From contig JACPBG010000002.1 in NCBI GenBank assembly GCA_016180435.1, positions 60,342 through 124,341 on the forward strand: a stretch of 64,000 nucleotides of DNA. The letters are read 5' to 3'. Shown piece by piece: positions 26,728 to 43,510 of the stretch. Origin of the DNA: Candidatus Sungiibacteriota bacterium (lineage in GTDB: Bacteria; Patescibacteriota; Minisyncoccia; Sungbacterales; HO2-52-23). The translations under genes were made by a program, and so were the position numbers. The notes under the pieces are model-generated. The model was not told the origin of the DNA and did no database searches. It worked only from the letters and a program-made list of their open reading frames with translations. Position 1 is the first letter of the stretch. The number at the start of each line of letters is the position of its first letter.

Positions 26728-26760
26728 CGATATGATGGGAAAGGATGGCGGGTTTTGTGA

Positions 26761-27153: not shown

Positions 27154-27170
27154 ATGTAAAAGTCCTCCTC

Positions 27171-27215: not shown

Positions 27216-28199
27216 GTGATTATCGGGCACGAACGGCAAATTGAATATCTGGAAAAAATCATAAGACGCGGGCGCATGTCCCACGCCTATTTATTTTTTG
27301 GTCCGGAACATGTAGGAAAATTCGCATTAGCCAAGGAAATTGCGCGTGTTTTAATGTGCCCGAATAAGAATAAGATCGGCGATGCCGGAGACGGATGCGC
27401 GGATTGCCGTCAAATTGAACAGGATATTCATCCCGGCGTAATAATTCTTGATATTGAACACACTCTTGTCTCCAAGAAAGAAATTCGTAAAGACATTCCG
27501 ATTGAAGATATACGGGAACTGAAACGCCGATTTTCTTTTGCTCCGGAGCAAGGAAAGTGGCGGATCGCTATAATTAATGAAGCGGAGAAATTAAGTGCCG
27601 AGGCCGCCAATGCGTTTTTGAAATTATTGGAAGAGCCGGGAGCGCGGACTCTTTTTTTGCTGGTAAGTTCGACGTATGATTCGGTTTTGCCGACCATTGT
27701 TTCGCGCGCCGAGCCGCTTAGATTTTCTTTGGTGTCAGATGCGATTTTGCGTGAATTTTTAGAACAAAAAAAGATAAGTCAAGATCAACGGGAATCTATT
27801 TTGAAACTTGCGGCCGGGCGCTCCGGGATTGCCATAAGATCCGTCGAGGATCCGTCTTATTTCATAAAACAGAAAAAAATACGGGATGAAATTGAATCAA
27901 TCCTCTCGTGCAAAGATATTCCGTCGGCTCTGGCCCTTACCGAGCGGGTTGCCAAAGACAAGGAGATGTTGAAAACCGCGGCTGATTTTTTGATCCGTTC
28001 ATTGCGCGATAACATCATCGCAACCATTCTGGAGTCCAAGACGTATCATACCAAAGTGGGACGGCTTAAAGAGATCCACCGCATTCTTTCCATAATAGAG
28101 TCCACCAACGTCAATCCGCGTCTGGCTATGGATGTGATGTTGATGGAGGCGTTAACCACTAACAGCACGAACAGCTTTGTCTATGGGTTTAGGTTGTAG
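27216..28199 (+). CDS. holB: DNA polymerase III delta-prime subunit (clamp-loader AAA+); last ~20 codons supplied by repeat E
   Basis: MSHAYLFFGPEHVGKFALAKEIARVLMCP...GCADCRQI; SRAEPLRF. Confidence 0.8.
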   Translation: MIIGHERQIEYLEKIIRRGRMSHAYLFFGPEHVGKFALAKEIARVLMCPNKNKIGDAGDGCADCRQIEQDIHPGVIILDIEHTLVSKKEIRKDIPIEDIRELKRRFSFAPEQGKWRIAIINEAEKLSAEAANAFLKLLEEPGARTLFLLVSSTYDSVLPTIVSRAEPLRFSLVSDAILREFLEQKKISQDQRESILKLAAGRSGIAIRSVEDPSYFIKQKKIRDEIESILSCKDIPSALALTERVAKDKEMLKTAADFLIRSLRDNIIATILESKTYHTKVGRLKEIHRILSIIESTNVNPRLAMDVMLMEALTTNSTNSFVYGFRL

Positions 28200-28275
28200 A
28201 TGCCGGTATGGCGGGAGGGTTTTAGGCATAAGGCCCTAAAACTAATACCCTAAAACCGGACCGGCTTCTAAAACA
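28140..28275. repeat. repeat family E copy 1 (~130 bp), inverted relative to 43141..43270
   Basis: Reverse complement of 28165-28275 aligns base for base, with few mismatches, to gttttagaagccagtctggttttggggtattagttttaaggccttatacctaaaaccc...gcatctacaacctaaacccatagacaa at 43141. Confidence 0.7.
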
Positions 28276-28292
28276 TACACCTCATAACAGTT

Positions 28293-29543
28293 TTGTTGGT
28301 GTTGTTTGCGAAATTGAGAATTTTACTTGCTATTTTAGTTGTTATACTTGTAATTGTCGTTGTCTTCCCGTTTGTTTTGAATATGGCAGGTTTATCTGCG
28401 CCGCAGTTTGCTTTCGTAGGAGATGCGGCAAGCGAACGCGCCGGTGAAGCCGGCATATGGCGTTCGGAAAACGGCGGCATATCCTGGAAAGAAATAAGAT
28501 TTCAAACCGGAGGCAACCCATTGCCGTTATCCATCCATGATTTGACGTTCCATCCCCATTATCGCGATACAGTATTGATGGGAACGCGGGGAAATGGACT
28601 TTGGAAAAGCGATAATAACGGCATGTCATGGAAAAGAATCAATGACCGCGCGGGTATTTTGCAAAATAATGCGGATATTTACGGGGCGGCAGTAAGTCCG
28701 GCAAGCCCCGCGGTTTGGTATGTGGCTGCATATCAAAACGGCCGCGGGGAAGTATTGAAGAGTTTGGACGGCGGATCAAGTTTTGCAAAGATATATCATT
28801 TAAACGGGGGCGGAATTCCGATTGTCGGCCTATTCGCATATGCCGATAATTCTGAGCGGGTTCTTATTGCTACGGCCAATGGCGGTTTTTTGCAGACAAG
28901 CGACGGAGGCGCAAGTTGGGGATCCGTTTCATGGAGTTCCGGAAATATTACAGCCATACGCGTGAACCCGGCAAACCCGGACGAAATAATTATTTGGATA
29001 GCCGGAGGTAAAATAATGCGCTCGCAAGATGGCGGCCTGACTTGGCGTAGTGTTAATTCACCGGACCGGGGCGAAACTTCCGGGATGTTTTCGTATAATG
29101 GTCCGCGCGTGGGACAAGAATCCGCCGGTTTGAGTACTGATTCCTTGCCGCCGGATAATTCATCCAAGCCGGGTTTTCAATTTGATCTTGGAGCGATTTT
29201 TTCACCCTTGAATAAGGGATCCGATGATTTTATAATAAGTCCATCGGATAGGAGAGCGCGTTATTTAAAATCCGGAAGTAATATTTATCGTTCGGGAGAC
29301 GGCGGCGGCTCATGGAATCCGGTCCACACCTCGCTTTCTCCGCGTACGCGTTTGGATGCGGTTGCCGTTGATCCGTTCAATGCTGATAATGTTTTTTTTA
29401 CAGCGTCCGGGGAATTTCATAAGAGTACGGATGGCGGCGCTACGTGGGAAATGCGCGATTTGCCGCCCAATATGAAGGGAAGAATTAGAATATTACGGAT
29501 AAGTACGCATAATCCAGAGATAATGTTTGCGGTGACACAATAA
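28293..29543 (+). CDS. BNR/Asp-box repeat protein, membrane-anchored (Ycf48/sialidase-like beta-propeller)
   Basis: Seven S-x-D-x-G-x-T/S-W boxes: SENGGISW, SDNNGMSW, SLDGGSSF, TSDGGASW, SQDGGLTW, SGDGGGSW, STDGGATW; N-terminal TM. Confidence 0.7.
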   Translation: MLVLFAKLRILLAILVVILVIVVVFPFVLNMAGLSAPQFAFVGDAASERAGEAGIWRSENGGISWKEIRFQTGGNPLPLSIHDLTFHPHYRDTVLMGTRGNGLWKSDNNGMSWKRINDRAGILQNNADIYGAAVSPASPAVWYVAAYQNGRGEVLKSLDGGSSFAKIYHLNGGGIPIVGLFAYADNSERVLIATANGGFLQTSDGGASWGSVSWSSGNITAIRVNPANPDEIIIWIAGGKIMRSQDGGLTWRSVNSPDRGETSGMFSYNGPRVGQESAGLSTDSLPPDNSSKPGFQFDLGAIFSPLNKGSDDFIISPSDRRARYLKSGSNIYRSGDGGGSWNPVHTSLSPRTRLDAVAVDPFNADNVFFTASGEFHKSTDGGATWEMRDLPPNMKGRIRILRISTHNPEIMFAVTQ

Positions 29544-29547
29544 AAGC

Positions 29548-29671
29548 AGTGATGCCAATCCTATGCGAATTTAATGCCAAGCTGGCGAATTGCGAATAAT
29601 TATTAGCATAATTAGCAATTTGTAGATTAGCATAAGATTTGTAGATTTGCATCATTGCGGTGCGAAGCACA
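29548..29671 (+). repeat. repeat family B copy 2, leader upstream of frr
   Basis: agtgatgccaatcctatgcgaatttaatgccaagctggcgaattgcgaat...tttgtagatttgcatcattgcggtgcgaagcacaATG. Confidence 0.7.
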
Positions 29672-30214
29672 ATGCTGGAGTTTAAAGTAAAACTTGAAAA
29701 AATAATTGAGCATCTCAAAACCGAGATCGCGTCTTTGCGCACCGGACGGGCAAGTCCGGCGCTGGTGGAGGATTTGGAAGTGGATTATTACGGCGCCAAG
29801 ACCCCGTTAAAAGCCGTGGCAGCAATTTCCTCTCCCGATGCTCGCCAGATTTTAATTCAGCCCTGGGATAAAAATGCGGTTCAGCCCATTGAGCGCGCGA
29901 TTCAGTCCTCGTCACTCGGGTTAAATCCTATTACGGATAAGGATTCCATCCGCCTTTCAATTCCTTCGCTTACCGAGGAGCGCAGAAGAGAGCTCACCAA
30001 AATTTTGGGGAAACACCTGGAAGAAGCGCGGATTGCGGTGCGGCGCGATCGGGAAGAAATGTTGAGAGAAATTGATAAACAGGAGAAAGACAAAAAAATT
30101 TCTGAAGATGAAAAATTCAGGCAGAAGCATGAAGCGCAGAAGATAATTGATGAGATAAATAAAAAAATAGAGGATATGGGGAAGGCGAAAGAGAAGGAGA
30201 TTATGACGGTATGA
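29672..30214 (+). CDS. frr: ribosome recycling factor
   Basis: MLEFKVKLEKIIEHLKTEIASLRTGRASPALVEDLEVDYYGAKTPLKAVAAISSPDARQILIQPWDK. Confidence 0.9.
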   Translation: MLEFKVKLEKIIEHLKTEIASLRTGRASPALVEDLEVDYYGAKTPLKAVAAISSPDARQILIQPWDKNAVQPIERAIQSSSLGLNPITDKDSIRLSIPSLTEERRRELTKILGKHLEEARIAVRRDREEMLREIDKQEKDKKISEDEKFRQKHEAQKIIDEINKKIEDMGKAKEKEIMTV

Positions 30215-30227
30215 TGTATTTGCTTAG

Positions 30228-30400
30228 ATATTTCAATTTTCAAACACGATTTGCTCGGAAACTACTTTTAAAAAACTTCGCGCCGACCCACCGTGTCGGC
30301 GCTCATCACGGGTCGGCCTCACTCGTTTCGCTTCGCTCAACACCGTGGCCGTTCGGCCTCCCAGTGTTTTTAAAAGCAGTTTTCCTCGCCTGCTGTATTG
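30228..30400. repeat. degenerate family-A-like structured element
   Basis: tttcaaacacg...cgggtcggcc...ggcctcccagtgtttttaaaag parallels the A-family termini and core. Confidence 0.35.
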
Positions 30401-30431
30401 TTTCAGTTAATTTTATTCAAGGGAGGTAGAT

Positions 30432-30463
30432 GGGTTTGCTGAATGTAGCCGCCTGCGGCTTGT
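30432..30463 (+). repeat. conserved motif GGGTTTGCTGAATGTAGCCGC plus hairpin, copy 1 of 3
   Basis: gggtttgctgaatgtagccgcctgcggcttgtttgt; preceded by GGGAGG; copies at 31251 and 34452. Confidence 0.55.
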
Positions 30464-30532
30464 TTGTAATATTCAATAAATTATGATATTATATTTAGGT
30501 TGCCGCTATATGGGCGCAAAAGAGGAGGTTCT

Positions 30533-30961
30533 ATGTTAGGAACCGTATTTCTGCTTTTGGCTATTTATCAGATTAAGCACTTTCTTGCCGATTTCCCTTT
30601 ACAAACGGAATATATGTTGGGCAAATTTAAGGATGGCTGGGGGTTTCTGCCGCCTCTCTTGGCACATGCAGGCGTTCACGCGGTCTTTACCATAATTATC
30701 GTGGCATACTTTAGTGGATCATTATATTTGGCGTTCGCGTTGGGGGTATTTGACTTTGTCATACACTTTTTTATGGATAGAATCAAAGCCGGCGGTAAAT
30801 ATCTTGGCCGATATAAAGCGCTTACTGCCAAAGAATATATATTGGCAACTCCAAAACAAAAGCAACATAACAAATTCTTCTGGTGGTCATTGGGTTTGGA
30901 TCAAATGGTTCACCACTTTACACATTACACGATAATTGTTTGTATAATCACATTGCCATAA
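30533..30961 (+). CDS. DUF3307-like small multi-pass membrane protein
   Basis: MLGTVFLLLAIYQIKHFLADFPLQTEYM...; four hydrophobic segments. Start taken at ATG 30533. Confidence 0.45.
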   Translation: MLGTVFLLLAIYQIKHFLADFPLQTEYMLGKFKDGWGFLPPLLAHAGVHAVFTIIIVAYFSGSLYLAFALGVFDFVIHFFMDRIKAGGKYLGRYKALTAKEYILATPKQKQHNKFFWWSLGLDQMVHHFTHYTIIVCIITLP

Positions 30962-30974
30962 GCAATATGGTTTC

Positions 30975-31090
30975 TATTTTTTGTGTCGAATCAGATTCGG
31001 CACATTTCATTTTAAAACACGTTCGGTTCGTTCAGCGACGAACCTCACTAAGCATCCGGCGATTCGCCGAGCACTCAATTTATCCCAAAA
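30975..31090. repeat. degenerate family-A-like element
   Basis: ttttaaaacacgttcgg...ctcactaagcatccggcg... resembles tttcagacacg...ctcgctaagggtcggcg. Confidence 0.25.
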
Positions 31091-31250
31091 TAGTTCCCGA
31101 GCCAGTCGAGGGACTACCTTTAGGGAAGTAAGTGTTGTAACAATAGGTTGAGTGTTCGGACCATGCCGAATCGCTTTCTGATTGTTTTAAAATCATATTG
31201 CCTCAGACCGCATCGCTCGCTTAAAATTTTTACTCAATGAAGAAAAAAGG

Positions 31251-31283
31251 GGGTTTGCTGAATGTAGCCGCCTGCTTGTCTAT
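31251..31283 (+). repeat. GGGTTTGCTGAATGTAGCCGC motif, copy 2
   Basis: gggggtttgctgaatgtagccgcctgcttgtc. Confidence 0.5.
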
Positions 31284-31331
31284 CCGAAGTCGAAAGGCAT
31301 AGGAGGGCGGCGGCCTCTTATATAAAAATTC

Positions 31332-31356
31332 CACCCGACTGGATGCCGGGTGGCAC
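31332..31356 (-). terminator. terminator hairpin of paralog P2, conserved with 26703..26727
   Basis: - strand: cacccggcatccagtcgggtgg followed by aattttt. Confidence 0.55.
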
Positions 31357-31389
31357 ATATTGATTGCGGCGGCGGAGGCGGGGAAACTA

Positions 31390-31875
31390 TTACTTCCAAG
31401 ACACGCTTGCGTTACAGCCGTAGCCAATCGCGCAACTGTAGGCCATCGCGGTTTTTGTATGGCTGAGAGAAATACTGTAATCTCTGGTGGCAAGTAGAAG
31501 AGAAATACCACGATCGTTAAGGAAGATTTTGAATGCATTCTCGACGTCCTCTGCTCCGCCTATATATGATTCTTTAAACGGGTGCTGTGTGCGGGCCGTA
31601 GAAATAACAGGCGGTTGGTCAAGGGGGAATATAGATTTTCCGTCTTCCTTGTTATCCACGGTTACATAGAAGAGCTCATCATCCCTGCGGATGATAGTGA
31701 TGTCGGCATCGCCATCCGTTACTAACTTTATTTTTGGCCTACGGAATCTGTTGTCGAGGAATTGCCTCAATTCCATCTGGCAGTTACCCCCAAATTGTGT
31801 CGGTTGATGACTGTTGTCACTGGTTATGGCCTCCAAAACGCGCATATTATTCAATCGCATGGCATCTAAATTCAT
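31390..31875 (-). CDS. hypothetical protein, paralog P2 of 26761..27153
   Basis: RBS AGGAGG 8 nt before the ATG; shares the TDGDA-I-I motif and an M-N/D-L N-terminus with P1. Confidence 0.45.
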   Translation of the reverse strand: MNLDAMRLNNMRVLEAITSDNSHQPTQFGGNCQMELRQFLDNRFRRPKIKLVTDGDADITIIRRDDELFYVTVDNKEDGKSIFPLDQPPVISTARTQHPFKESYIGGAEDVENAFKIFLNDRGISLLLATRDYSISLSHTKTAMAYSCAIGYGCNASVSWK

Positions 31876-31925
31876 AAAAGAACCTCCTAAATTTGATTAC
31901 ATCATCATAACAAATTTTAAATCAA

Positions 31926-32666
31926 ATGTCAATAGTTCGGAAAAAACAGCGGTTGGAGGAGATACTTATAGAAAAAGGATTGGCAACGGATAAAAAAGAG
32001 GCGTTTATTATGGTTACCGAAGGGAACGTGTTGGTGGACGGCGTTAAAATGGTTTCTCCGGCGCAGATGGTGAAGCCGGATGCGGAAATTAAAATTCGCG
32101 GCCATTTGCAATACGTGGGAAGGGGAGCGCTGAAACTTGCAGGCGCGCTGGAAAAATTCGGGAAAGACGTTTCCGGTAAAATTTGTGCGGACATCGGGTC
32201 GGCCACCGGAGGATTTACGGAGGTTTTGCTGCAGCATGGAGCAAAAAATGTCTATGCCATTGATACTGCCCAGGGAAAACTTGCGCCGAAACTTCGGGAT
32301 GATCCGCGTGTTTTCGTAATGGAGGGAATGGATGTGCGCGACATAAAAGAATTGCCTGAAAAAATTGATATCGCTGTAATAGATATATCGCTTATTCCGC
32401 TTGAAGGTATTTTGCCGTCAATCAAGAAATTTCTAAAGGAAGGCGGAGAAGTGATTGCGCTTTTCAAGCCGCAATATCAGACCCGCAACCCGAAATTATT
32501 GCGTCACGGTATCATAAAGGATGATGCGGCGCGGCAAGGGCTGCTGGATGATTTTGTCGTATGGGCAAAAGACAGCGGATGGGATATAATTGGACAAATG
32601 GTGTCGCCGATTAAAGGAGGAGAAGGAAATACGGAATTTTTGCTTCACCTAAAGCAAAAATTATAG
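31926..32666 (+). CDS. tlyA: TlyA-family rRNA 2'-O-methyltransferase (S4 domain plus FtsJ-like MTase)
   Basis: RLEEILIEKGLATDKKEAFIMVTEGNVLVDG; DIGSATGGFTEVLLQHGAKNVYAIDTAQGKL. Confidence 0.8.
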   Translation: MSIVRKKQRLEEILIEKGLATDKKEAFIMVTEGNVLVDGVKMVSPAQMVKPDAEIKIRGHLQYVGRGALKLAGALEKFGKDVSGKICADIGSATGGFTEVLLQHGAKNVYAIDTAQGKLAPKLRDDPRVFVMEGMDVRDIKELPEKIDIAVIDISLIPLEGILPSIKKFLKEGGEVIALFKPQYQTRNPKLLRHGIIKDDAARQGLLDDFVVWAKDSGWDIIGQMVSPIKGGEGNTEFLLHLKQKL

Positions 32667-32738
32667 AATATTTAATTGCTCTAATTATTTTACTTGACCT
32701 GATAATTTTAAATTTTATGATTCTTAAAAACAATTTAT

Positions 32739-33056
32739 ATGCCTAAAGAAAATAAATTCAACAAGCCTTCAGAAGAAATCTTTCCCCGGCCTGAGAAGAA
32801 AGTGGTTTTTCTTATGAAACTAAGAAAAGAACTAAAAGTGTTTAGTGATTCGGTATTAGTAATCGATATGGCGAAATATAACGAAGAAAATAACCCACAC
32901 GGGGAAAGAGCAGACATAGCTGTATTGGTAAAGAAAAATCTTAAAGATGTAAAAGATTATCTTGAGGGCGAAGCTGGATTTAAAATAATAAGGGAAGGCC
33001 CAAGCCCAATATTTAGTAAAGATGATACTGCGTTTTGGCTCAAGATAACCGATTGA
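32739..33056 (+). CDS. hypothetical protein (AT-rich)
   Basis: 105-aa ORF; no motif recognised. Confidence 0.3.
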   Translation: MPKENKFNKPSEEIFPRPEKKVVFLMKLRKELKVFSDSVLVIDMAKYNEENNPHGERADIAVLVKKNLKDVKDYLEGEAGFKIIREGPSPIFSKDDTAFWLKITD

Positions 33057-33095
33057 AGTGCCGTATGGGCGGCTTCTATTTTAGTCGAAGTAATT

Positions 33096-34166
33096 ATGAT
33101 TACACTTATTCTTATTATTGTCGTAATTAGTATCCTCATTTTGGTCCACGAATGGGGTCATTTTTATTCGGCGCGGCGCCTGGGCATTAAAGTCGAGGAA
33201 TTCGGATTCGGGTTTCCGCCCAAAGTTTTTTCCCGTGTTAAAAACGGCATTACTTATTCTTTCAATCTTCTGCCTTTCGGCGGTTTCGTAAGGATTTTCG
33301 GGGAACACGGAGAAGGCGAAGGAGAAACGGATAGTTTTATTTCCCGCCCGCCCTGGCAAAGATTCATTATTCTGGGCGCGGGAGTATTTATGAATTTGGT
33401 GCTTGCCTGGGTATTTTTTAGCGCAGGCAGCGTTGCCGGGGTTCCGCGTCTTAGCGATGATGAAAATTTATCCGGCGTACCCGTGTCTATTATAGGGGTT
33501 ATGCCCGATTCTCCGGCTATGCAGGCCGGCATAAGATTTGGGGATGCGATTTTTGAACTGCGCTCGCGTGATATCTCGCTTCGGGTTGAGACGGAGGATG
33601 ATGTGCGGGATTTTGTTGCGGCATATCGCGGCGAGGAAATAACCATGGTACTTAAGCGGGGGAGCGAAATCCGCGAGGTATTTCTTAGGCCGAGGGTAAA
33701 TGTTCCGGAGGGAGAGGGGCCAATCGGAGTGGCGCTGGGCAGGATTGAATTTATAAAGACATCTTGGTATCTGGCGCCGATTGAAGGCGGGAGGGTTTTG
33801 GTCAGGACAGTGAGCGCGACTGTATCGGGTTTTTGGGAATTAATCAGGGAGCTTGCGGTATCCGGCCGGGCTCCGGTTGCGGTTTCGGGTCCGGTTGGGA
33901 TTTTTTTTGTGGCTGATGATACGCGCTCGCTCGGTGTTACTTACTTTCTGCAATTTATCGGGATTTTGTCGGTGAATTTGGCGATTTTGAATTTTTTGCC
34001 TATTCCGGCGCTGGATGGAGGCAGGGTGCTGTTTTTGGTGATAGAAAAAATAAAAGGCAGCCGCGTGGATCCCCGTGTTGAGAATATGATCCATGCCGCG
34101 GGATTTGTGCTTTTGGTGGTTCTTATGATTTTGGTGACGTATCGGGATGTTGTAAAGATTTTGTGA
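33096..34166 (+). CDS. rseP: RIP site-2 zinc metalloprotease RseP-like
   Basis: HEWGHF (HExxH) in TM1, PDZ-like middle region, C-terminal NFLPIPALDGG. Confidence 0.85.
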   Translation: MITLILIIVVISILILVHEWGHFYSARRLGIKVEEFGFGFPPKVFSRVKNGITYSFNLLPFGGFVRIFGEHGEGEGETDSFISRPPWQRFIILGAGVFMNLVLAWVFFSAGSVAGVPRLSDDENLSGVPVSIIGVMPDSPAMQAGIRFGDAIFELRSRDISLRVETEDDVRDFVAAYRGEEITMVLKRGSEIREVFLRPRVNVPEGEGPIGVALGRIEFIKTSWYLAPIEGGRVLVRTVSATVSGFWELIRELAVSGRAPVAVSGPVGIFFVADDTRSLGVTYFLQFIGILSVNLAILNFLPIPALDGGRVLFLVIEKIKGSRVDPRVENMIHAAGFVLLVVLMILVTYRDVVKIL

Positions 34167-34294
34167 TGGGAAAAATTGTATTTTGCTCGGCAACATTATT
34201 TTGAAACATTTTTATTCGCCCTGCAGCCATAAATTTTCCAGAACTCCTATTCGGACAAAAATAATCGCTTCATACCCCGCATTTTTTAACGGGC

Positions 34295-34345
34295 TTCGGC
34301 CGCTCCGGCGGCGGCCTGCAGGGTCGGCGACTCGCTCATGCGTAA
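34295..34345. repeat. partial family-A element (5' half)
   Basis: cggccgctccggcggcggcctgcagggtcggcga versus ccgctccggcggcggtctcgctaagggtcggaca. Confidence 0.4.
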
Positions 34346-34451
34346 TCATACCGAACCTACGTTAATGGAAAATTTCCGGCAAACAGGGCTCGCTTTATTT
34401 GATTTTTAGAATCAAATTGTCTCGTTGTAATTTTTCCTCATTGTGGAGTAG

Positions 34452-34491
34452 GGAGTTTGCTGAATGTAGCCGCGTTGCGCGGCTTTTTTAT
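34452..34491 (+). terminator. GGGTTTGCTGAATGTAGCCGC motif, copy 3, forming a terminator
   Basis: gggagtttgctgaatgtagccgcgttgcgcggcttttttatt. Confidence 0.55.
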
Positions 34492-34502
34492 TGATTTTTA
34501 AA

Positions 34503-34544
34503 CTGTATCTAAAATTACGCTTAAGCGTAATTTTAGATACAGTT
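34503..34544. promoter_or_regulatory. perfect 20-bp-arm palindrome, operator or terminator candidate
   Basis: ctgtatctaaaattacgcttaagcgtaattttagatacag. Confidence 0.5.
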
Positions 34545-34621
34545 ATTTCTGTGGAAAACTTTGGTTGAAAGTATTATGGGTGCGTGCTATTATCCTTTTC
34601 AGATCGTTGAGGAGTATTGAT

Positions 34622-34876
34622 ATGAAAGAACAGCCGAAGCAAATTCCGCATCCGAGAGACGGAAAAGTGTGGGTTAATGAGACAACCGAGGCTTGGCGTA
34701 AAGATGAGTGTTTGTGTCTGAACGGGTGTGCGAATATGAAACCCGGTCAGCCGGATCATTGCCAGATCGCCCAGCGTCTTTTTGATGCGTGCGTAGATGG
34801 GCGAGCGGCGCTTATGGTTACGCGCTGCGGTCTCTATAAGCCGGTCAAGGCGGACCCCGTGTTAACTTGTTCATAA
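34622..34876 (+). CDS. small Cys-rich hypothetical protein
   Basis: ORF 34565..34876; start taken at ATG 34622 (MKEQPKQIPH...); 8 Cys in 85 aa. Confidence 0.3.
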   Translation: MKEQPKQIPHPRDGKVWVNETTEAWRKDECLCLNGCANMKPGQPDHCQIAQRLFDACVDGRAALMVTRCGLYKPVKADPVLTCS

Positions 34877-34908
34877 AAAAAGCGGGCAGAAAATTCTGTC
34901 CGCTATTA

Positions 34909-35439: not shown

Positions 35440-35603
35440 CTTTTTTCCGCCACGTGAAGGTACTATTGAAATGGTATGGCTGGGGATAAATAAAGTCAAA
35501 TACAAATACTTGCATTGTTAGTACAGTTATGCTATACTGTAATGTATAAGCTTAGTATTAAAACAATATAGGTCTTAGATATCAACATTTCTGTTGATGT
35601 TGA

Positions 35604-35706
35604 CCCCGTTAGAAAGAAACAAACATAGTAGTTCCAAAATTCCAAGCAATTTTTAACACAAGCCACGAATACGGCAATTAAAAACCTTTGTTTTTTTCTA
35701 ACGGGG
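35604..35706. repeat. repeat family D copy 1: CCCCGTTAGAA...TTCTAACGGGG terminal inverted repeats around ~80 nt of unique sequence
   Basis: ccccgttagaaagaaac...tttttttctaacgggg; same termini at 61000..61105 with unrelated interior. Confidence 0.6.
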
Positions 35707-35716
35707 TTGAAAGGCC

Positions 35717-35835
35717 ATCCATACTCCCAACTTTTTGCATCCGGAGTTTCAGCTTATGATTCAGCAATGAATTAAGACGCTAAAGGTATACGAAATCCTA
35801 CAGCAAATAGAGCACGGCTGCAAAAAGTTGGGAGG
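35717..35835. repeat. long hairpin: 15-bp inverted repeat enclosing ~80 nt
   Basis: ctcccaactttttgc ... gcaaaaagttgggag. Confidence 0.5.
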
Positions 35836-36003
35836 ACAAGTTTTAAGAGGAGCGAGGTCGTTAATAGTCAGAAAATTCGAAATTCGAATAATGAAATTCG
35901 AAACAAATCCCAAATCATAAATTCAAATGTTTCAAACGTTTAGAATTTAGAATTTTGATATTGTTTAGAATTTAGAATTTAGAGTTTCGGATTTAGTATT
36001 ATA

Positions 36004-36204
36004 GTGGCTTTTCAAGATCAACAGGGAGGATTCCAGGATGATCGCCCGAAATACGACATCACCTGTTCCAAATGTGGTAATCAAGGAACGGTTCCGTTCC
36101 CGCCCACACCGGGACGCGATGTCTTCTGCCGCGATTGTTTCCGTCAGAATAATCCGAATCCCCGCCGCGAATTTCGCGGACGCGGAGGATACGGATCAAG
36201 ATAA
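36004..36204 (+). CDS. small zinc-ribbon protein (CxxC-x17-PPTP-x5-CxxC, YacG-like pattern), standalone version of the ribbon found in the large Cys-rich paralogs
   Basis: CSKCGNQGTVPFPPTPGRDVFCRDC parallels CQNCKNEF...VPPPTWCPECR at 38815 and 41377. GTG start with no RBS. An overlapping frame (36038..36235) has a strong RBS (GGGAGGA) but a non-protein-like product. Confidence 0.35.
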   Translation: MAFQDQQGGFQDDRPKYDITCSKCGNQGTVPFPPTPGRDVFCRDCFRQNNPNPRREFRGRGGYGSR

Positions 36205-36301
36205 ATCTAAAGGCCGGGCATTGTCCGGCTTTTAGATTTATCAATCTCTAAGTTCTAATCTCTAATTTCTAATAAAACACTAAAAATGTTATTATAGCAG
36301 A

Positions 36302-37531
36302 ATGCGTTACGATTATCTCATTATAGGCGGAGGCATTGCCGGAGTTACTGCGGCCGAAACTATCCGGGAGGAAGACGCCCAAGCCACTATTGCCCTTGTT
36401 TCGGAAGAAACGCATCCTTTGTATTCAAGAGTCATGCTGCCGCGCTATCTAAAAAGAAAAATCCAGCGTGAGCAGCTTTTTTTGCGGACCGAGCATCAAT
36501 TTACCCAAAAAAGCATTGATTTACGGCTGGCGCAGGAGGTTTCATTTGTTGATACTAAGCGCGGGGAGATCGGATTGGTGAACCGCGCGATTCTTGGTTT
36601 TAAAAAACTTTTGATCGCAAGCGGAGGCCGGGTAAAAAGCATTCCGGAGAATTTGCGCGGCGAATTTTCATACCGCCTGCAAACTCTTGAGGATGCCGAC
36701 CGGCTTTTTAAGAATTTATATAAAATCACAAGCCCGATCGTAGTCGGATCGTCTTTGATCAGCTTGGAATTATTGGAAATTTTTGCCGTTCACAAAACCC
36801 CTCCCGTAGTTTTGGTGCGCGGCCCGCATTTTTTTCGGGAATTTTTGGACGCATCCGGCGCTGAAATTCTTCATGCCAATTTCCGGGCACACGGCATTGA
36901 CGCGCAATATAATACGACCGTAACGTCGGCCGAACCGAAGGATAACATGCTTAAAGTGCTGACCAGCCGGTATAGTGAAATAATTTGCGATGCCATGGCG
37001 TTTGGCATAGGCATTGAGCGAAATATTGGATTTCTGCATGGATCAGGAATAGAATGCGGGAAGGCCGGCGTCAAAACCAATGAGTTTTTGGAAACAAATG
37101 CCGAGGGAGTTTTTGCCGCCGGGGATGTTGCGGAATTTCAGGATGTTATTTCGGGCAAGCAACACGTTGTCGGCACCTGGACCAATGCGTTTTTACAGGG
37201 CAAGTGTGCGGGCTTGAATATGGTCGGAAAGCGGGAAATATTCAAGCGTGTTTCCTCGTATTCCATAACCAATCTCGGATTTCACATTACGATACTGGGC
37301 GAATGCGATGGTGAAGGAGTAGAGGATATTATTCGGATTGATTCGGCGCACAGGCAATATGAGCGTTTTTTTCTCAAAGATGGAATTATCTGCGGCACGG
37401 CGCTTATCAATCGTTTTCCGGATAAGCCCATTTTGGCAAAACTTATTGAAACCAGAACTCCGGTTGGTGAATACGCGGAACAATTGCGTGATTTCAGATT
37501 TGACATCGGGAGTATTCCGGTGATACAATAG
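36302..37531 (+). CDS. FAD-dependent pyridine nucleotide-disulfide oxidoreductase
   Basis: MRYDYLIIGGGIAGVTAAE (GxGxxG); second Rossmann motif IVVGSSLISLE; GDVAEF. Confidence 0.8.
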   Translation: MRYDYLIIGGGIAGVTAAETIREEDAQATIALVSEETHPLYSRVMLPRYLKRKIQREQLFLRTEHQFTQKSIDLRLAQEVSFVDTKRGEIGLVNRAILGFKKLLIASGGRVKSIPENLRGEFSYRLQTLEDADRLFKNLYKITSPIVVGSSLISLELLEIFAVHKTPPVVLVRGPHFFREFLDASGAEILHANFRAHGIDAQYNTTVTSAEPKDNMLKVLTSRYSEIICDAMAFGIGIERNIGFLHGSGIECGKAGVKTNEFLETNAEGVFAAGDVAEFQDVISGKQHVVGTWTNAFLQGKCAGLNMVGKREIFKRVSSYSITNLGFHITILGECDGEGVEDIIRIDSAHRQYERFFLKDGIICGTALINRFPDKPILAKLIETRTPVGEYAEQLRDFRFDIGSIPVIQ

Positions 37532-37611
37532 TTTTAAATTCACGAATCTAGCCCGAATTTTATTCGCGAATATTCGCGAATTTAATTCGTGATTGATTAG
37601 CGAAAAATTTT

Positions 37612-38352
37612 ATGGACGACATTGAATCACAAAACGAAGTAAAAACAGATGATAAAAAAGAAAATACATTTTTAATTCCGGCGTCAATCATTGTGGCCGG
37701 TGTTCTGATTGCGTTTGCGGTCTTTTATTCCGGACGCGGAGGAAATATGGCACCGTCGCGTCAGCCATCCGCGGCAAATAACACAGCACCCGCGGCTCCG
37801 GTTATCTCGGGAGATTTGGCTGATGACGATCCCACGCTTGGCAATCCGGACGCCCCGGTTACCATGGTTGAATTTAGTGATTTTCAGTGTCCGTTTTGCC
37901 GTTCCATGTGGCGCAATATCCTGCCGCAAATAAAAGAAAATTACATAAAAACCGGAAAAGTTAAATTTGTATACCGTGATTTTCCGTTAACATCCATTCA
38001 TCCCGGAGCAGAACCAGCGGCTTTGGCCGGCGAGTGTGCGGATGAGCAGGGAAAATTCTGGACTTTTCACGATAAAGTTTTCGAGGAACAGGATAAAAAA
38101 GGGCAGGGAACAGTGGAATTTGGCGCAGCGGATCTGAAACAATGGGCGCGCGCGGCAGGTTTGGATGGAGTTCAATTTGATTCTTGTCTGGGTTCGCGCA
38201 AATATGCGGATGAGGTTGCAAAGGACTTGCAGGACGGGGTAGCCGCCGGAGTTACCGGCACGCCCGCGACCTTTGTGAACGGCCGTTTGATTTCCGGCGC
38301 CCTTCCGTATGCGCAGTTTGAAGCGATAATTGAGGAGGCGTTCAAGAGATAG
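37612..38352 (+). CDS. DsbA-family thiol:disulfide oxidoreductase, membrane-anchored
   Basis: N-terminal TM; FSDFQCPFCR active site. Confidence 0.8.
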   Translation: MDDIESQNEVKTDDKKENTFLIPASIIVAGVLIAFAVFYSGRGGNMAPSRQPSAANNTAPAAPVISGDLADDDPTLGNPDAPVTMVEFSDFQCPFCRSMWRNILPQIKENYIKTGKVKFVYRDFPLTSIHPGAEPAALAGECADEQGKFWTFHDKVFEEQDKKGQGTVEFGAADLKQWARAAGLDGVQFDSCLGSRKYADEVAKDLQDGVAAGVTGTPATFVNGRLISGALPYAQFEAIIEEAFKR

Positions 38353-38401
38353 AATTAATTGGGCAATGGTAATTTATCTGGTAACGTGATATAATGGGTT
38401 T

Positions 38402-38617
38402 ATGAAGAAAACATATTTTACATCAGTTATATGGAAAGAAGGAAAATATTATGTTGCCCAGTGTCTTAATATTGATGTATCAAGTTTTGGTAAAACCAAA
38501 CGTGAAGCTCTAAAAAATCTGGAAGAGGCAGTGGAACTTTATTTGGAAGATAAACCGATTCGCGTTCAACGTGTTGTTTCGCCGTCTATTGTGGTGAGAG
38601 AATTGCAATATGCCTAA
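38402..38617 (+). CDS. hicB: HicB-family antitoxin (UPF0150-like)
   Basis: YYVAQCLNIDVSSFGKTKREALKNLEEAVELYLE. Confidence 0.65.
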   Translation: MKKTYFTSVIWKEGKYYVAQCLNIDVSSFGKTKREALKNLEEAVELYLEDKPIRVQRVVSPSIVVRELQYA

Positions 38618-38822
38618 GTTGTTTTCATCGCGGCGTGTCATTCAGGTCCTGGAGCGCCAGGGCTTTGTTTTTATTTCTCAACGGGGAAGTCACGCCAAAT
38701 ATCGCAAAACCGGTCCGCATACATTTACCGCGATTGTCCCTGTTGGGAAAAAGGAGATTCCACACGGAACTTTTCGTTCTATTGTACGCCAATCAGGATT
38801 ACAGGAGGAGAATTTTGAATAA
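38610..38822 (+). CDS. hicA: HicA-family toxin (YcfA-like)
   Basis: VLERQGFVFISQRGSHAKYRK...VPVGKKEIPHGTFRSIVRQSGL; overlaps hicB by 8 bp. Confidence 0.65.
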   Translation: MPKLFSSRRVIQVLERQGFVFISQRGSHAKYRKTGPHTFTAIVPVGKKEIPHGTFRSIVRQSGLQEENFE

Positions 38823-40593
38823 AATTATAAGCAATCAAGAAACAAAAATCTGTCAAAATTGTAAAAACGAGTTCACCATTGAATCGGTTGACTTTGCATT
38901 CTACGAAAAAATCCGTGTGCCGCCGCCCACCTGGTGTCCGGAGTGTAGGATGGTGCGGAGGATGGTGTTTAGAAACGAGCGCAAACTTTTTCGCATAAAA
39001 AGCGCGAAATCCGGCAAAGAAATTTTATCGTTAAATCCGCCGGAAGCCGGTGTTGCGGTTTATGATGAAAAAGAATGGTGGTCGGATGATTGGGATGCCC
39101 GAGAATACGGGAGAGAATATGATTTCTCGCGGCCGTTTTTTGATCAGTTTTTCGAGTTGTCGAGGGTTGTTCCGCGTTACAGCCGCGATGTCCTGAATAT
39201 GGTCAATAGCGATTATTCCGCCAATGCCGCTGATCTAAAAAATTGTTACCTTTTGTTTAACTCAAATTACAGCGAGGATTCTTCATACGGAAACGCCGTG
39301 GATAAATCACATTTTTGTTTTGATAATTCGCATATTCAAAAATGTGAAAGATGTTACGAGTCATTTTGGCTGGCAAATTGTTACCAGACCCATTTTTCCT
39401 CCAAGTGCGAGGATTGCCAGAGTGTATGGTTCTCAAAAAATTTACGCGGATGCAGCAATTGTTTCGGATGCGTGAATCTGCGCGGGAAAAATTACTGCAT
39501 TTTCAACAAGCAATATTCCAAAGAAGATTATATCAAAAAGTTGGAATCGTTTTCTTTGCATACTTTTTCCGGAATCACGGCAGTAAAGAAAACGGCGCTG
39601 GATTTTTGGTTAAAATTTCCCAACAAATATATTGAGGGCGTTAAAAATCTAAATTCATCCGGGGAATATGTTACGCATTCCAAAAATGTGCATCATGGTT
39701 ATTTGGTGCGTGAAGGGGAAGATTTGCGCTATGTCCAGTATGTGCAGCTGCCGCCCTCTAAAGATCTGATGGATATAACTGTCGGAGGGAACGGCATGGA
39801 ATTATCATATGAAAATGCGACAAGCGGTTGGGGCAGGGTTTATAACTTGAAATTTTGTGCGGAATGCTGGCCGGAGGTTCGGGATATGGAATATTCAATG
39901 TTTTGTACCTCATCCTCCAATCTTTTCGGGTGCGTGGGTCTTCATAAAAAAGAATTTTGCATTTTAAATAGGCAATATACGAAAGAATCCTTTGACCAGC
40001 TCAAGATAAAGATTATTAAACATATGGATGAAATGCCATATGTTGATTCGCGCGGCCGGGCGTATAAATATGGGGAGTTTTTTCCGCCGGAATTGTCGCC
40101 GTTTGCCTATAATCAAACTATTGCCATTGAGCATTTTCCTTTAACCAAAGAAGAAGCCGAGAAAGCGGGGTACAGATGGCAGGAGCCGACAAGGCGCGAA
40201 TATGAAATAACCATGACTGTGGATGAAATTCCGGATTCGATCAGGGATATCCGCGAAGACATTCTAAAAGAAGTTATTCAATGCGCGAGTTGCAAACGGG
40301 CGTATCGCCTGATACGTTCCGAATTGGAATTTTTGAAGAAAGAAGGCATTCCGGCGCCCAGAGTTTGCATTGACTGCCGGCATGACGAGCGTATCAGCCA
40401 AAGAAACAAAGCAATTTTTTATTCGCGCCGATGCGCGTGCAGCGGCCAAAATTCCGGGAACGGGGCGTATAAAAATACTGCTACTCATTTCCATGGTCCA
40501 AATCAGTGCCTTAATGAATTTAAAACAAGTTATGCGCCGGACAGGCCGGAGATAGTGTATTGCGAAGCGTGCTACAATTCTGAAGTTGTATAA
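38815..40593 (+). CDS. large cysteine-rich multi-zinc-ribbon protein, paralog A (~592 aa), unknown function
   Basis: TTG start behind AGGAGGAG, overlapping the hicA stop. N-terminal ribbon CQNCKNEF...VPPPTWCPECR, C-terminal ribbons CASCKRAY...CIDCR and YCEACYNSEVV; central Cys repeats. Collinear homolog of 41377..43101. Confidence 0.6.
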   Translation: MNKIISNQETKICQNCKNEFTIESVDFAFYEKIRVPPPTWCPECRMVRRMVFRNERKLFRIKSAKSGKEILSLNPPEAGVAVYDEKEWWSDDWDAREYGREYDFSRPFFDQFFELSRVVPRYSRDVLNMVNSDYSANAADLKNCYLLFNSNYSEDSSYGNAVDKSHFCFDNSHIQKCERCYESFWLANCYQTHFSSKCEDCQSVWFSKNLRGCSNCFGCVNLRGKNYCIFNKQYSKEDYIKKLESFSLHTFSGITAVKKTALDFWLKFPNKYIEGVKNLNSSGEYVTHSKNVHHGYLVREGEDLRYVQYVQLPPSKDLMDITVGGNGMELSYENATSGWGRVYNLKFCAECWPEVRDMEYSMFCTSSSNLFGCVGLHKKEFCILNRQYTKESFDQLKIKIIKHMDEMPYVDSRGRAYKYGEFFPPELSPFAYNQTIAIEHFPLTKEEAEKAGYRWQEPTRREYEITMTVDEIPDSIRDIREDILKEVIQCASCKRAYRLIRSELEFLKKEGIPAPRVCIDCRHDERISQRNKAIFYSRRCACSGQNSGNGAYKNTATHFHGPNQCLNEFKTSYAPDRPEIVYCEACYNSEVV

Positions 40594-40785
40594 TGAAAGC
40601 ACGCGGAGTCCCGCCTCAATTCAAGAATTGATTTTGTATATAGATGTAGTAAGCCGAAGGCGTTGCTGCGCTATGATCCTAATTTTACTGCTGACTTCGC
40701 ACGGAATTGAGGCGGACGAAAATTGCTACAATAATGAAGTGGTATGATGTTTGACCGTTATATCTATGTTTGTTATTATTGAACC

Positions 40786-41013
40786 ATGGCTAATCATAAG
40801 CGACAATTTGTACATTATGATCCGGAGGCTGACGTTATTGCCATGTATAACGGTAAGGGGCGTGAAGAGGAGTTCGTGGAAGTGGCGCCCAATGTTTCTT
40901 TAGAATTAGACAAAAAAGGGTCGGTAATCGGTATTGAAATTTTGAACGCATCTAAAGTGTTGCGTCCTTTTTGGAACTCATTGCGTAAACGGCAATCTTC
41001 TTACATAAAGTAA
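40786..41013 (+). CDS. DUF2283-like small protein, candidate antitoxin partner
   Basis: VHYDPEADVIAMYNGKG...ELDKKGSVIGIEILNAS. Confidence 0.5.
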   Translation: MANHKRQFVHYDPEADVIAMYNGKGREEEFVEVAPNVSLELDKKGSVIGIEILNASKVLRPFWNSLRKRQSSYIK

Positions 41014-41304
41014 ATGGAAGTTCGCTACAGTCAACATCTTGAAATTCGTCTCACAATGCGCGGCATACCACACGAGTTGCCGCGCATTGTATATGAAAAT
41101 GCCAAGCGGCGGTTTCATGATACTGACTCGGATCTTGACATTGCGGTGCTGCGTACCGCTTTTTACGGACGGCAACGGGATGTTGTGGTTGCCTATCGTA
41201 TATATTCAGATTATGTTTTGCTGATTACTATCCACCCACTTAAAGAAGGACAATTCGAAAACCGGATTCGCTCTGGACGTTGGACGGAGATTCCATCGTT
41301 ATGA
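41014..41304 (+). CDS. DUF4258-like small protein, candidate toxin partner
   Basis: Begins 1 nt after the previous stop; HLEIRLTMRGIPHELPRIVYENA...VVVAYRIYSDYVLLITIH. Confidence 0.45.
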   Translation: MEVRYSQHLEIRLTMRGIPHELPRIVYENAKRRFHDTDSDLDIAVLRTAFYGRQRDVVVAYRIYSDYVLLITIHPLKEGQFENRIRSGRWTEIPSL

Positions 41305-41376
41305 GTTGTGATGTAAAAGAATATTTACCCTCCCAAATTTTACAAAGTAAAACTTGGGAGGGCGGGCGAAAAAAAT

Positions 41377-43101
41377 ATGACACGACAATGCCAAAATTGT
41401 AACCAGAGCTTTGAAATTGCCCCCGAGGACCTTTCGTTTTACGACCGCATTCATGTCCCGCCGCCCACCTGGTGTCCAAGATGCCGGTTTCAGAGACGGC
41501 TCGCATTTTTTAATTTAACCGCGCTTTACAAGCGAAAATGCGATCTTTGCGGCGAGGAAAAAATTTCCATTTATCGTCCGGATGCGCCTTATAGAGTTTA
41601 TTGTCCGCCCTGCTGGTGGTCGGATAAGTGGGACCCTATGCAATATGGACGTGATTACGATTTTTCACGATCGTTTTTTGAGCAATACGCTGATCTTGTG
41701 CATGAGGTCCCGCACTGCGGCTTGGCAACTGACCATACGACGGTCATCAATTCAACCTATACCAATCACGCCGGAAATCTCAAAAATTGCTATTTGTTAT
41801 TCCAGGCGGATTTTAATGAGGACTGCGCGCACGGAGTATATGTTAAAAATTCAAGGTCCACGCTTGATTCCTCATTGATATTGAAATCCGAACTCTGCTA
41901 TGACTCCATGCACTCATATAAAAATAGCCATTGTGCGGGACTGCGAAGCCAGGTGACCAATTCGCTTGATTGTTACTTTCTCAAGGACTCATTTAATTGC
42001 CAGTATTGTTTTGCATCCGCCAATTTGCGAAATCGGAAGCATGTTATTTTTAATAAGCAATATTCTCCGGAAGATTATTTTAAGGAAATCGCGAGATGGG
42101 ATTTAGGTTCGTACGCCAAGTATCAAGAGATCAAATGTCTTGCCGAGGCGCACTGGAAAACTTTGCCGCCCAAGCCGCATATGGATGATTTTTCCGTAAA
42201 TTCATCGGGCAGCCATTACTTCCAGTGCAAAAACTGCAAGGATTGTTTTGAGGTGTGGGGCGAGGCCGAAGACAGTAAGTTTCTTTTTATGCTTTCCATT
42301 CCTCCGTTGAAAGATTGTTACGACGTATCAACCTGGGGCAATAATTTGCAGTTATCGTATGAATCATATGCAGTGGGCGAGCAGGGCGCCAATCTTAAAT
42401 TTTGTGCGGAGTCGGGTATCAATGCGCATTTACTGGAATATTGCAAGTTTACATTCGGAGGGGTGGAGGATTTCGGATGCGTTGGGTTGCGAAAGAAACA
42501 ATACTGTATCTTGAATAAACAATATACGAAAGAGGAGTATGAGAAAATGGTGCCAAAAATCAAGAAGCATATGGATGAAATGCCGTATATTTCAGAAATC
42601 CGAAATCCGAAGCACGAAATCCGAAAGATAATATATAAATACGGGGAATTTTTTCCGATAGAATTGAGTCCGTTTCCTTATAACGATACTGTGGCGCATA
42701 ATTTTTTCCCGCTTACCAAAGAAGATGCGTTGGCACGGGGATATAAATGGGGCGATAAAGAAAAAAGAGCTTATCCCATCACAATAAAGGCAAGCGATCT
42801 GCCGGATCATATCAAAGATGCGCCAGGTACCATTTTACAGGAAGTGATAGAATGTGTTGCATGCGGCCGGGGATTTAGAATCATTCCGATGGAGTTTAAA
42901 TTTTTACGAAAAATGAATTTGCCTTTGCCTCGGCAATGCCCGTTTTGCCGGATTGATGAGAAATTCACACTGTGGGTTAAAGATTTACGGGTTATCCCGC
43001 GGACGTGCGATAAGTGCGGCACATCGCTCACGACCAATTACACGCAAGAGGAAGCCCCTGTGATTTATTGCAAAGCATGCTATAATAATGAAGTAATATA
43101 A
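41377..43101 (+). CDS. large cysteine-rich multi-zinc-ribbon protein, paralog B (574 aa)
   Basis: RBS GGGAGGG; CQNCNQSF...VPPPTWCPRCR; CVACGRGF...CPFCR; YCKACYNNEVI; shares GCVGL, KHMDEMPY and YKYGEFFP...ELSPF blocks with paralog A. Confidence 0.6.
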   Translation: MTRQCQNCNQSFEIAPEDLSFYDRIHVPPPTWCPRCRFQRRLAFFNLTALYKRKCDLCGEEKISIYRPDAPYRVYCPPCWWSDKWDPMQYGRDYDFSRSFFEQYADLVHEVPHCGLATDHTTVINSTYTNHAGNLKNCYLLFQADFNEDCAHGVYVKNSRSTLDSSLILKSELCYDSMHSYKNSHCAGLRSQVTNSLDCYFLKDSFNCQYCFASANLRNRKHVIFNKQYSPEDYFKEIARWDLGSYAKYQEIKCLAEAHWKTLPPKPHMDDFSVNSSGSHYFQCKNCKDCFEVWGEAEDSKFLFMLSIPPLKDCYDVSTWGNNLQLSYESYAVGEQGANLKFCAESGINAHLLEYCKFTFGGVEDFGCVGLRKKQYCILNKQYTKEEYEKMVPKIKKHMDEMPYISEIRNPKHEIRKIIYKYGEFFPIELSPFPYNDTVAHNFFPLTKEDALARGYKWGDKEKRAYPITIKASDLPDHIKDAPGTILQEVIECVACGRGFRIIPMEFKFLRKMNLPLPRQCPFCRIDEKFTLWVKDLRVIPRTCDKCGTSLTTNYTQEEAPVIYCKACYNNEVI

Positions 43102-43140
43102 ATAATTGCGAACAGCGCGAACCGAATTGTTATAGAGTGT

Positions 43141-43270
43141 AAGTTTTAGAAGCCAGTCTGGTTTTGGGGTATTAGTTTTAAGGCCTTATACCTAAAACCC
43201 CATGACTATACGGGCATCTACAACCTAAACCCATAGACAATTCAGATGTTAGTGCTGTTAGTGTTTCATT
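43141..43270. repeat. repeat family E copy 2, upstream of the glutaredoxin gene
   Basis: See 28140..28275. Confidence 0.7.
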
Positions 43271-43276: not shown

Positions 43277-43510
43277 ATGGCTAATGTAAAAATCTATACC
43301 ACTCCATCCTGCGTTTACTGCAAAATGGCCAAGGAGTTTTTCAAAAATAATAATGTCGCGTATGAGGAAAAAAACGTGGCCCAAGATGCGGCGGCGCGGG
43401 ATGAGATGATTCAAAAATCCGGCCAGCTCGGGGTACCGGTCATAGACATTGACGGGAAAATTATCGTGGGATTTGATCAGCCGGAGTTAAAAGAAGCGCT
43501 TCATATATGA
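43277..43510 (+). CDS. glutaredoxin-like protein (NrdH/YruB family)
   Basis: VKIYTTPSCVYCKMAKEFF...GVPVIDIDGKIIVGFD. Confidence 0.75.
   Translation: MANVKIYTTPSCVYCKMAKEFFKNNNVAYEEKNVAQDAAARDEMIQKSGQLGVPVIDIDGKIIVGFDQPELKEALHI

Follow-up and report, generated by a model that had tools for sequence, protein, structure and literature searches.

The 64-kb stretch of a Candidatus Sungbacteria genome analyzed here (Parcubacteria, candidate phyla radiation, CPR; hereafter the window, within which all repeat copies were counted) contains two copies of an imperfect palindrome that we refer to as family E. Each copy completely fills a spacer between two genes on the same strand: copy A separates holB, coding for a DNA polymerase III delta′-like clamp-loader subunit, from a BNR/sortilin-Vps10-like gene, and copy B, ∼15 kb away and oppositely oriented relative to transcription, separates the gene of a zinc-ribbon-like protein from a glutaredoxin gene (Table 1). 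A sequence-only reading of this DNA had singled out the pair, proposing that an essential clamp-loader subunit had acquired a repeat-derived tail. That the subunit is essential would follow from general knowledge of clamp loaders, and the identities assigned to holB and the glutaredoxin gene are borne out by their Pfam domains. In addition, the structures matched by HolB in the PDB are clamp-loader gamma/tau and delta′ subunits, and its nearest public homologs, 80% and 76% identical, are named delta′ by some sources.

The similarity between the two spacers is real and far beyond chance: with outer arms included, the reverse complement of copy A aligns with copy B over 159 nt at 81.8% identity (blastn in the window). 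The cores, ∼115 to 120 nt long within a unit of 115 to 160 nt, are 89% identical when inverted and 71% identical in direct orientation, the residual direct match arising because each copy is itself palindromic. An inverted match that holds "almost base for base", as first described, is overstated for 82 to 89% identity with a 3-nt indel, and the boundaries first drawn (28140-28275 and 43141-43270) have to be moved, since the match reaches 28309/43108 on one side and fades at 28154/43266 on the other. Neither blastn nor an nhmmer profile retrieved a third copy from the window. Stop codons are found in all six frames of the copies, at 2 to 5 per frame on both strands; this is about what base composition predicts, and we rejected the idea that they are a designed feature. 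In copy B, the frame used by HolB reads NTNSTNI*IVYGFRL*. Because this frame is broken by a stop and the 3-nt indel, copy B is non-coding upstream of the glutaredoxin gene, just as the sequence-only reading had it.

Table 1. Coordinates of the repeats and genes discussed in the text (window positions; L006 to L008 are contigs of relatives)
Feature	Position	Strand	Remarks
Family-E copy A, with outer arms	28154..28309	-	blastn E = 3e-40; long imperfect hairpin, whole holB-BNR spacer; predicted minimum free energy -61.1 kcal/mol (z -3.89) on + strand, -54.1 kcal/mol (z -3.92) on - strand
Copy A core	28176..28290	-	101/113 identical to core B, inverted; nhmmer E = 1e-40
Family-E copy B, with outer arms	43108..43266	+	non-coding; 6 nt past upstream stop, 10 nt before glutaredoxin ATG; predicted minimum free energy -51.5 kcal/mol (z -4.03) on + strand, -52.1 kcal/mol (z -4.50) on - strand
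Copy B core	43127..43245	+	orthologous spacers of L006-L008: outer arms present, interior different
holB	27216..28199	+	327 aa; PF13177 DNA_pol3_delta2, E = 1.8e-46
holB codons 314-319 (TTNSTN)	28155..28172	+	older outer hairpin arm, (ACGAACAGC)n-type motif
holB codons 320-327 (SFVYGFRL) and stop TAG	28173..28199	+	family-E core; first codon straddles arm/core junction
BNR/sortilin-Vps10-like gene	28314..29543	+	PF15902; likely start TTG 28314, 5 nt past hairpin
Gene of cysteine-rich zinc-ribbon-like protein	41377..43101	+	574 aa; no Pfam family; widespread in Parcubacteria
Glutaredoxin gene	43277..43510	+	downstream of copy B; PF00462, E = 4e-20
AhpC/redoxin gene	43507..44058	+	∼250 nt downstream of copy B; 30-nt GC-rich palindrome 43685-43714, in frame, 10 aa PLRSRESEAS
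MnmA (tRNA 2-thiouridylase) gene	1..947	+	cut by left edge; inserts of +13, +9 and +20 aa at 113-190, 507-558 and 752-825
Glutamate dehydrogenase gene	54016..55410	+	14-aa insert at 54570-54621, same GC-rich palindrome family as MnmA 507-558; heptamer-arm-encoded segment LSSKFLVLSS at 54701-54755
ProRS gene	57786..59060	+	5-aa insert (ELRTKNLELS) at 58767-58804, heptamer-arm-encoded
Heptamer-arm hairpins	116-188, 760-822, 11237-11305, 11701-11756, 12230-12313, 14595-14663, 52466-52539, 54701-54755, 58767-58804		nine copies
Further two-copy family	10958-11077 and 14068-14187		93%
Further two-copy family	12953-13062 and 29547-29659		94%
Further two-copy family	47243-47381 and 63670-63814		
Further two-copy family	26690-26728 and 31316-31354		

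Each copy is predicted to fold into a long imperfect stem-loop with 45 to 55 pairs, in which core and arms form one continuous structure, and in none of the four copy/strand cases did any of 200 shuffles fold as well. The transcribed strand is favored by 7 kcal/mol in copy A, with no difference in copy B. The 31 substitutions that separate the copies fall mostly outside the stem (just 13 in paired columns, which make up 112 of the 163), and they break 7 to 9 pairs where random placement would break 11 to 16 (P = 0.001, 0.004, 0.007, and 0.10, depending on which of four reference structures is used). Wobble-compatible changes number six, and a single change, A-U to G-C, is compensatory. On these models the hairpin is maintained, be it by selection or by the way in which such palindromes get copied and repaired.

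Several familiar identities for this hairpin were tried and rejected. A classical intrinsic terminator is at odds with the lack of a U-tract or terminator-like site on the plus strand of either spacer; elsewhere in the window, 44 hairpin-plus-U-tract sites were found versus 25 expected from shuffles. Rfam 15 returned no match at gathering thresholds for the whole window, and the best sub-threshold hits (13 to 24 bits versus thresholds of 50 to 135) are generic long-hairpin look-alikes, an example being plant miRNA precursors at 14 to 24 bits versus 74 to 135. Judged by eye, the arm heptamers also misfit the RYYYAAC/GTTRRRY consensus of integron attC sites.

Comparison with relatives resolved the hairpin into two layers. 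For this we used contigs of relatives (L001 to L003 and L005 to L009), ∼50 kb of which were searched for the family-E core. At both sites, the outer arms are made of a short-period motif, which reads (ACGAACAGC)n in one arm and (GCTGTTAGT)n in the opposite one; the forms seen are CACTAACAGCACGAACAG or GCGAACAGCGCGAAC on one side versus GTTAGTGCTGTTAGTG opposite. The same arms, without the core, are present at the orthologous holB site in L002, whose HolB is 76% identical, and at the orthologous glutaredoxin site in L006 to L008, where the upstream protein is 78% identical. The core itself was not found anywhere in the ∼50 kb, and the spacer interiors of the relatives are unrelated to it. As relatives thus carry bare arms of this kind at both orthologous sites, the core must have been added later, in two places, at or near the junction of the old loop with the GT-rich arm. 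A 5-nt direct repeat lies at its boundaries: CTGTT...CTGTT in copy A, read as the reverse complement, and, by alignment, TGTTA...TGTTA in copy B.

The same spacers hold different hairpins again in L001, L003, L005, and L009. In L009, another short-period arm, (TTTCAAT)n, follows holB at 1660-1700. In L005, the sequence that ends the 577-aa ortholog (CYNNEVI*) appears two times at 3470-3570, on either side of a hairpin insert of ∼55 nt. It looks as if this insert had carried in, or duplicated, a substitute 3′ end for the gene.

The layering carries over to the HolB protein. When 21 orthologs are aligned, the conserved part, with the consensus end ...NVNPRLAMDVMxxEA(L), stops in the window protein at residue 313 (...MDVMLMEAL), beyond which the orthologs carry tails of 0 to 15 mutually unrelated residues. 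The tail of the window protein is TTNSTNSFVYGFRL, 14 residues encoded by 28155-28196, and its stop codon (TAG, 28197-28199) lies inside the stem. The claim that the last holB codons and the stop lie within the repeat therefore stands, with the overlap reduced from ∼20 codons to 14 codons plus the stop (28155-28199). Similarly, the whole tail is repeat-encoded, as proposed, yet just its last 7 to 8 residues and the stop come from the family-E core (Table 1). The core-derived part, SFVYGFRL, occurs in none of the 21 orthologs, so that this portion is unique to the present genome. A repeat-free ortholog with the same tail was not encountered among them; the sole shared residues belong to one ortholog, in which the corresponding piece of the repeat is present as well. 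This ortholog, P0002 on L002 (76% identical), ends in TTNSTNRNEQH*, a tail encoded wholly by arm repeats with no family-E core. Across the arm region 28155-28172, the window and L002 share a 28-nt identical run, and the arm motif recurs at the site of copy B and in L006 to L008. We make no claim of unusual arm conservation, since the body of holB, at 78% identity to L002, also contains a 30-nt identical run.

The proposal of a repeat-derived tail is thus right in substance. Judging from these alignments, the net change to HolB is the exchange of ∼5 tail residues, which were arm-derived and variable to begin with, for ∼8. The tail is best read as a by-product of repeat insertion in a stretch where the orthologs show no constraint. 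Nothing in the sequences points to a functional gain, and the effect on HolB is probably negligible.

The two family-E loci can be seen against the other palindromes of the window. Long hairpins are normal spacer content here, as illustrated by 23832-24014, 35506-36003, 50736-50948, and 52466-52621; of the 43 spacers that measure 50 nt or more, 19 reach a folding z <= -4 relative to shuffles. A hairpin family with heptamer arms, (AGAACTT)n...(AAGTTCT)n, is present in nine copies. Several of these separate neighboring genes within the ribosomal alpha operon (S13, S11, S4, RpoA, L17), with L13 also named, a placement expected of intercistronic repeats. At least five further repeat families have two copies each in the window (examples in Table 1). 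One of these copies, 29547-29659, fills the next spacer downstream of the holB locus, between the BNR gene and frr.

Some of these palindromes are part of proteins. One example is given by MnmA, which, relative to solved MnmA structures, contains three in-frame inserts at exact repeat coordinates, namely, two heptamer-arm hairpins and one GC-rich palindrome. In MnmA orthologs of other Parcubacteria, the same three loops hold inserts unrelated to these, a hint that the process is widespread in this group. Similarly, relative to solved structures or orthologs, glutamate dehydrogenase and ProRS contain inserts or segments encoded by the same two kinds of repeat. The cleanest case is that of the AhpC/redoxin gene close to copy B, whose in-frame palindrome is repeated once more at 63730-63771: in L006 and L007, precisely these 30 nt and 10 aa are missing from the 75% identical orthologs, giving a clean pair of filled and empty sites. 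A possible 4-nt flanking repeat (CGAG) is visible at this palindrome. Together, the redoxin site and the repeats inside open reading frames (ORFs) show that small palindromic repeats of this lineage do insert, proteins included. Within this series, family E at the end of holB is the mildest example.

The order of holB, the BNR gene, and the gene for ribosome recycling factor is kept in L001 and L003, and the proposed TTG start of the BNR gene aligns with the ATG of its orthologs there. A promoter-like site was predicted in neither family-E spacer, so that the flanking genes are probably cotranscribed. A loose Shine-Dalgarno match precedes just 10 of the 62 genes of the window. Many start codons have a TATAAT-like hexamer 7 to 16 nt upstream (for instance, 27170-27199 before holB; 57760-57785; 56000-56023), which suggests leaderless mRNAs or mRNAs with very short leaders. 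The gene upstream of copy B is the second of two tandem paralogs (38635-40593 and 41377-43101; 652 and 574 aa), both encoding cysteine-rich, zinc-ribbon-like proteins without a Pfam family. Proteins of this kind are very widespread in Parcubacteria, with ∼8,000 candidates scored at 53 to 79% identity, and the 574-aa protein is 100% identical to HYT98_02360 of a Candidatus Sungbacteria bacterium at NCBI. A protein database search with HolB of the window did not return that protein itself, the best match being 80% identical, although the collection does contain the 574-aa protein encoded on the same contig, at 100%.

[quoted passage not shown] We infer that it spread by insertion, along the following lines. 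The core would have been copied at two places, each inside an older intergenic hairpin, at a time when the holB frame had already entered the old arm. Its addition would have displaced the former holB stop, as a consequence of which translation runs 7 to 8 codons into the core, up to the internal TAG. The copying step may have been performed by a transposase acting in trans from elsewhere or by a hairpin- or recombination-based process. Once transcribed, a copy would form an intercistronic stem-loop in the probable holB-BNR-frr and zinc-ribbon-grx transcripts, where, if it has any role at the RNA level, it might hinder RNA decay or be a site of processing, rather than act as a classical terminator.

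Several observations weigh against this interpretation. With just two known copies, the words "family" and "mobile" rest on little. An exact 21-mer from the best-conserved block had no match in 185,579 GTDB species genomes, and a 19-mer had one match in JGI metagenomes, a chance hit to an AT-rich, eukaryote-like contig with no other similarity, in scans by exact words that would overlook diverged copies. Concatenated six-frame peptides of both copies, a query aimed at copies lying under called ORFs, found nothing at E <= 10 among 5.8 billion proteins. No Pfam domain of a transposase, integrase, or REP-associated tyrosine transposase (RAYT) was detected among the ∼60 proteins of the window. There is also no clean empty site for family E, as relatives show a different interior rather than a bare junction, and the 5-nt direct repeat could be either a target duplication or just a piece of the arm motif GCTGTTAGT, to which the pentamer also belongs. 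Finally, folding energies across all spacers reveal no consistent bias toward the transcribed strand. Beyond these points, the core was found at none of the HolB-guided loci in GTDB, and blastn of family E against a phage collection gave no match.

How do other explanations compare? Family E might instead be a selected cis-acting RNA stem-loop between cistrons that sets the 3′ ends of mRNAs or governs how stable they are or how they are processed, or that has a coupling or limiting effect on holB translation via the in-stem stop, its copies being alike through duplication and selection rather than mobility. The preservation of the hairpin against substitutions would fit this well, as would the exact filling of the spacers, from a few nucleotides past or ahead of one stop to 5 to 10 nt before the next start, the retention of the outer arms at orthologous sites where proteins are just 76 to 78% identical, and the probable cotranscription across spacers without predicted promoters. 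We nevertheless regard it as unlikely: in relatives, the orthologous spacers lack the core and contain hairpins unrelated to it, implying that no particular sequence is required at these sites, and the two copies point in opposite directions relative to transcription. Moreover, they have no U-tract, while ordinary hairpin-plus-U-tract sites do exist elsewhere in the window, and match no Rfam family. Rather improbable, too, is a one-off copy by recombination or gene conversion between spacers with similar arms, with neither element-specific mobility nor a genome-wide family behind it. The copy number of two is what such an event would leave, and homologous arms present at both sites before the core (one flanking arm is 19/23 identical between sites) would have supplied the needed homology; as the arms are palindromic, either orientation of the copy would be possible. 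Yet the copies are 11 to 18% diverged, which calls for an old event or independent evolution, and several other palindromic families with two to nine copies are scattered over the 64 kb, some in ORFs, pointing to insertion as a general process and not to an isolated accident.

Two further ideas can be dealt with more briefly. The strong predicted structure could suggest that family E encodes a small RNA or belongs to a guide-RNA array, and tandem interspersed guide RNA (TIGR) systems do occur in CPR bacteria (PMC12045711). The TIGR-Tas array, however, is composed of tandem repeat/stem-loop units beside a Tas gene with a Nop domain (PMC12045711), whereas the family-E copies are single, and the window contains no detectable Tas/Nop-domain or Cas protein. 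We rejected a TIGR- or CRISPR-like array on these two grounds; with no Rfam match at gathering thresholds and no predicted promoter either, a small-RNA gene of any such kind is very improbable. Least credible of all is an assembly artefact or chance similarity. The source is indeed a metagenome-assembled genome, but an E value of 3e-40 speaks against chance, and the 11 to 18% divergence of copies sitting in different, syntenically conserved contexts speaks against an artefact, because copies created by the assembler would show no differences.

Overlap of repeats with gene ends is known behavior of small bacterial repeats, and family E is a mild case of it. The value of these loci lies in their context, that of a reduced CPR genome whose longer spacers are, in about half of the cases, long hairpins and which contains several small dispersed palindromic families, some of them in frame in conserved enzymes. 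If this pattern is general, it would add to Rickettsia and some organelles a second, independent lineage for studying the entry of selfish palindromes into proteins and the new peptide segments that they create. It would also warn annotators that odd tails and loops of CPR proteins can be repeat-derived, and raise the question of what copies such elements with no transposase present. RPE-like palindromes as a general CPR feature are a possibility that deserves a dedicated scan. In a limited full-text search, we came across no paper that treats palindromic elements and Patescibacteria together; there is thus a faint indication that the wider pattern of CPR palindromes may so far be undescribed.

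Among known elements, MITEs offer the broadest frame for comparison. Like them, family E is short (115 to 160 nt, where MITEs are under about 500 bp) and non-coding, and it has terminal inverted repeats in the sense that the whole element is an imperfect palindrome with 48 to 57 predicted pairs, its exact termini not being fixable from two copies. Nothing among the ∼60 window proteins pointed to a parental insertion sequence or to a transposase with ends that match. Repetitive extragenic palindromes (REPs) and the bacterial interspersed mosaic elements (BIMEs) resemble family E as intergenic hairpin repeats in operons that can be barriers to RNA decay. According to Liang, Rudd and Deutscher in 2015, REPs near stop codons can reportedly affect translation of the upstream gene. 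They differ in being 20 to 40 nt long, with a conserved head and a link to RAYTs, whereas family E measures 115 to 160 nt and the window has no detectable RAYT or Y1 transposase.

Closer parallels exist for the overlap with holB. Copies of QMITE1 and QMITE2 in Coxiella burnetii reach 1 to 50 bp into the 3′ ends of functional genes, among them ruvB, recN, and mutT, and one QMITE copy provides a C-terminal extension of EnhC by 33 residues with the stop just beyond (PMC5896051). Family E is likewise a short, structured, intergenic repeat that overlaps a gene 3′ end, in this case by 45 nt. In contrast, QMITEs come in dozens of copies with defined terminal inverted and direct repeats and a link to IS1111, compared with two copies, undefined ends, and no visible insertion sequence partner for family E. 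The 127-bp repeat units of enterobacteria (ERIC or intergenic repeat units, IRU; RU-1) have been found inside genes, and they share with family E the form of an imperfect palindrome of similar size that sits in transcribed spacers in either orientation and is occasionally part of an ORF (PMC2759123). They belong to another lineage, and their consensus is conserved across genera, whereas the family-E core was not found outside the window.

The RPEs, reportedly described by Ogata et al. in 2000 in "Selfish DNA in protein-coding genes of Rickettsia", are the comparison to which the window as a whole leads. These elements are mentioned in PMC10969869 and PMC1458961. Both they and family E are palindromic, non-coding repeats of ∼100 to 150 bp in the small genome of a host-dependent bacterium, and both add residues to conserved housekeeping proteins without destroying them. 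In-frame internal inserts, the other hallmark of the likeness, are contributed here by the sister families (MnmA, glutamate dehydrogenase, ProRS, redoxin) and not by family E, which is not inside a gene, covers just the last 14 holB codons, and brings its own stop. Family E also has two known copies compared with dozens for RPE families, and the likeness is one of behavior; with a Parcubacteria-group host from an unrelated phylum, common descent with RPEs is not expected. By analogy, RPE, QMITE, and ERIC/RU elements would be the nearest analogues of the way family E works. Taking its sister families into account, we tentatively entertain the possibility, though the odds are against it, that they form an undescribed CPR population of small palindromic mobile sequences, which would spread without a nearby transposase, nest by preference in hairpins already there, possibly at loop/arm junctions next to a (C)TGTT motif, and settle in frame in surface loops and tails of essential proteins, including HolB, MnmA, glutamate dehydrogenase, ProRS, and redoxin, as a CPR counterpart of the Rickettsia palindromic elements.

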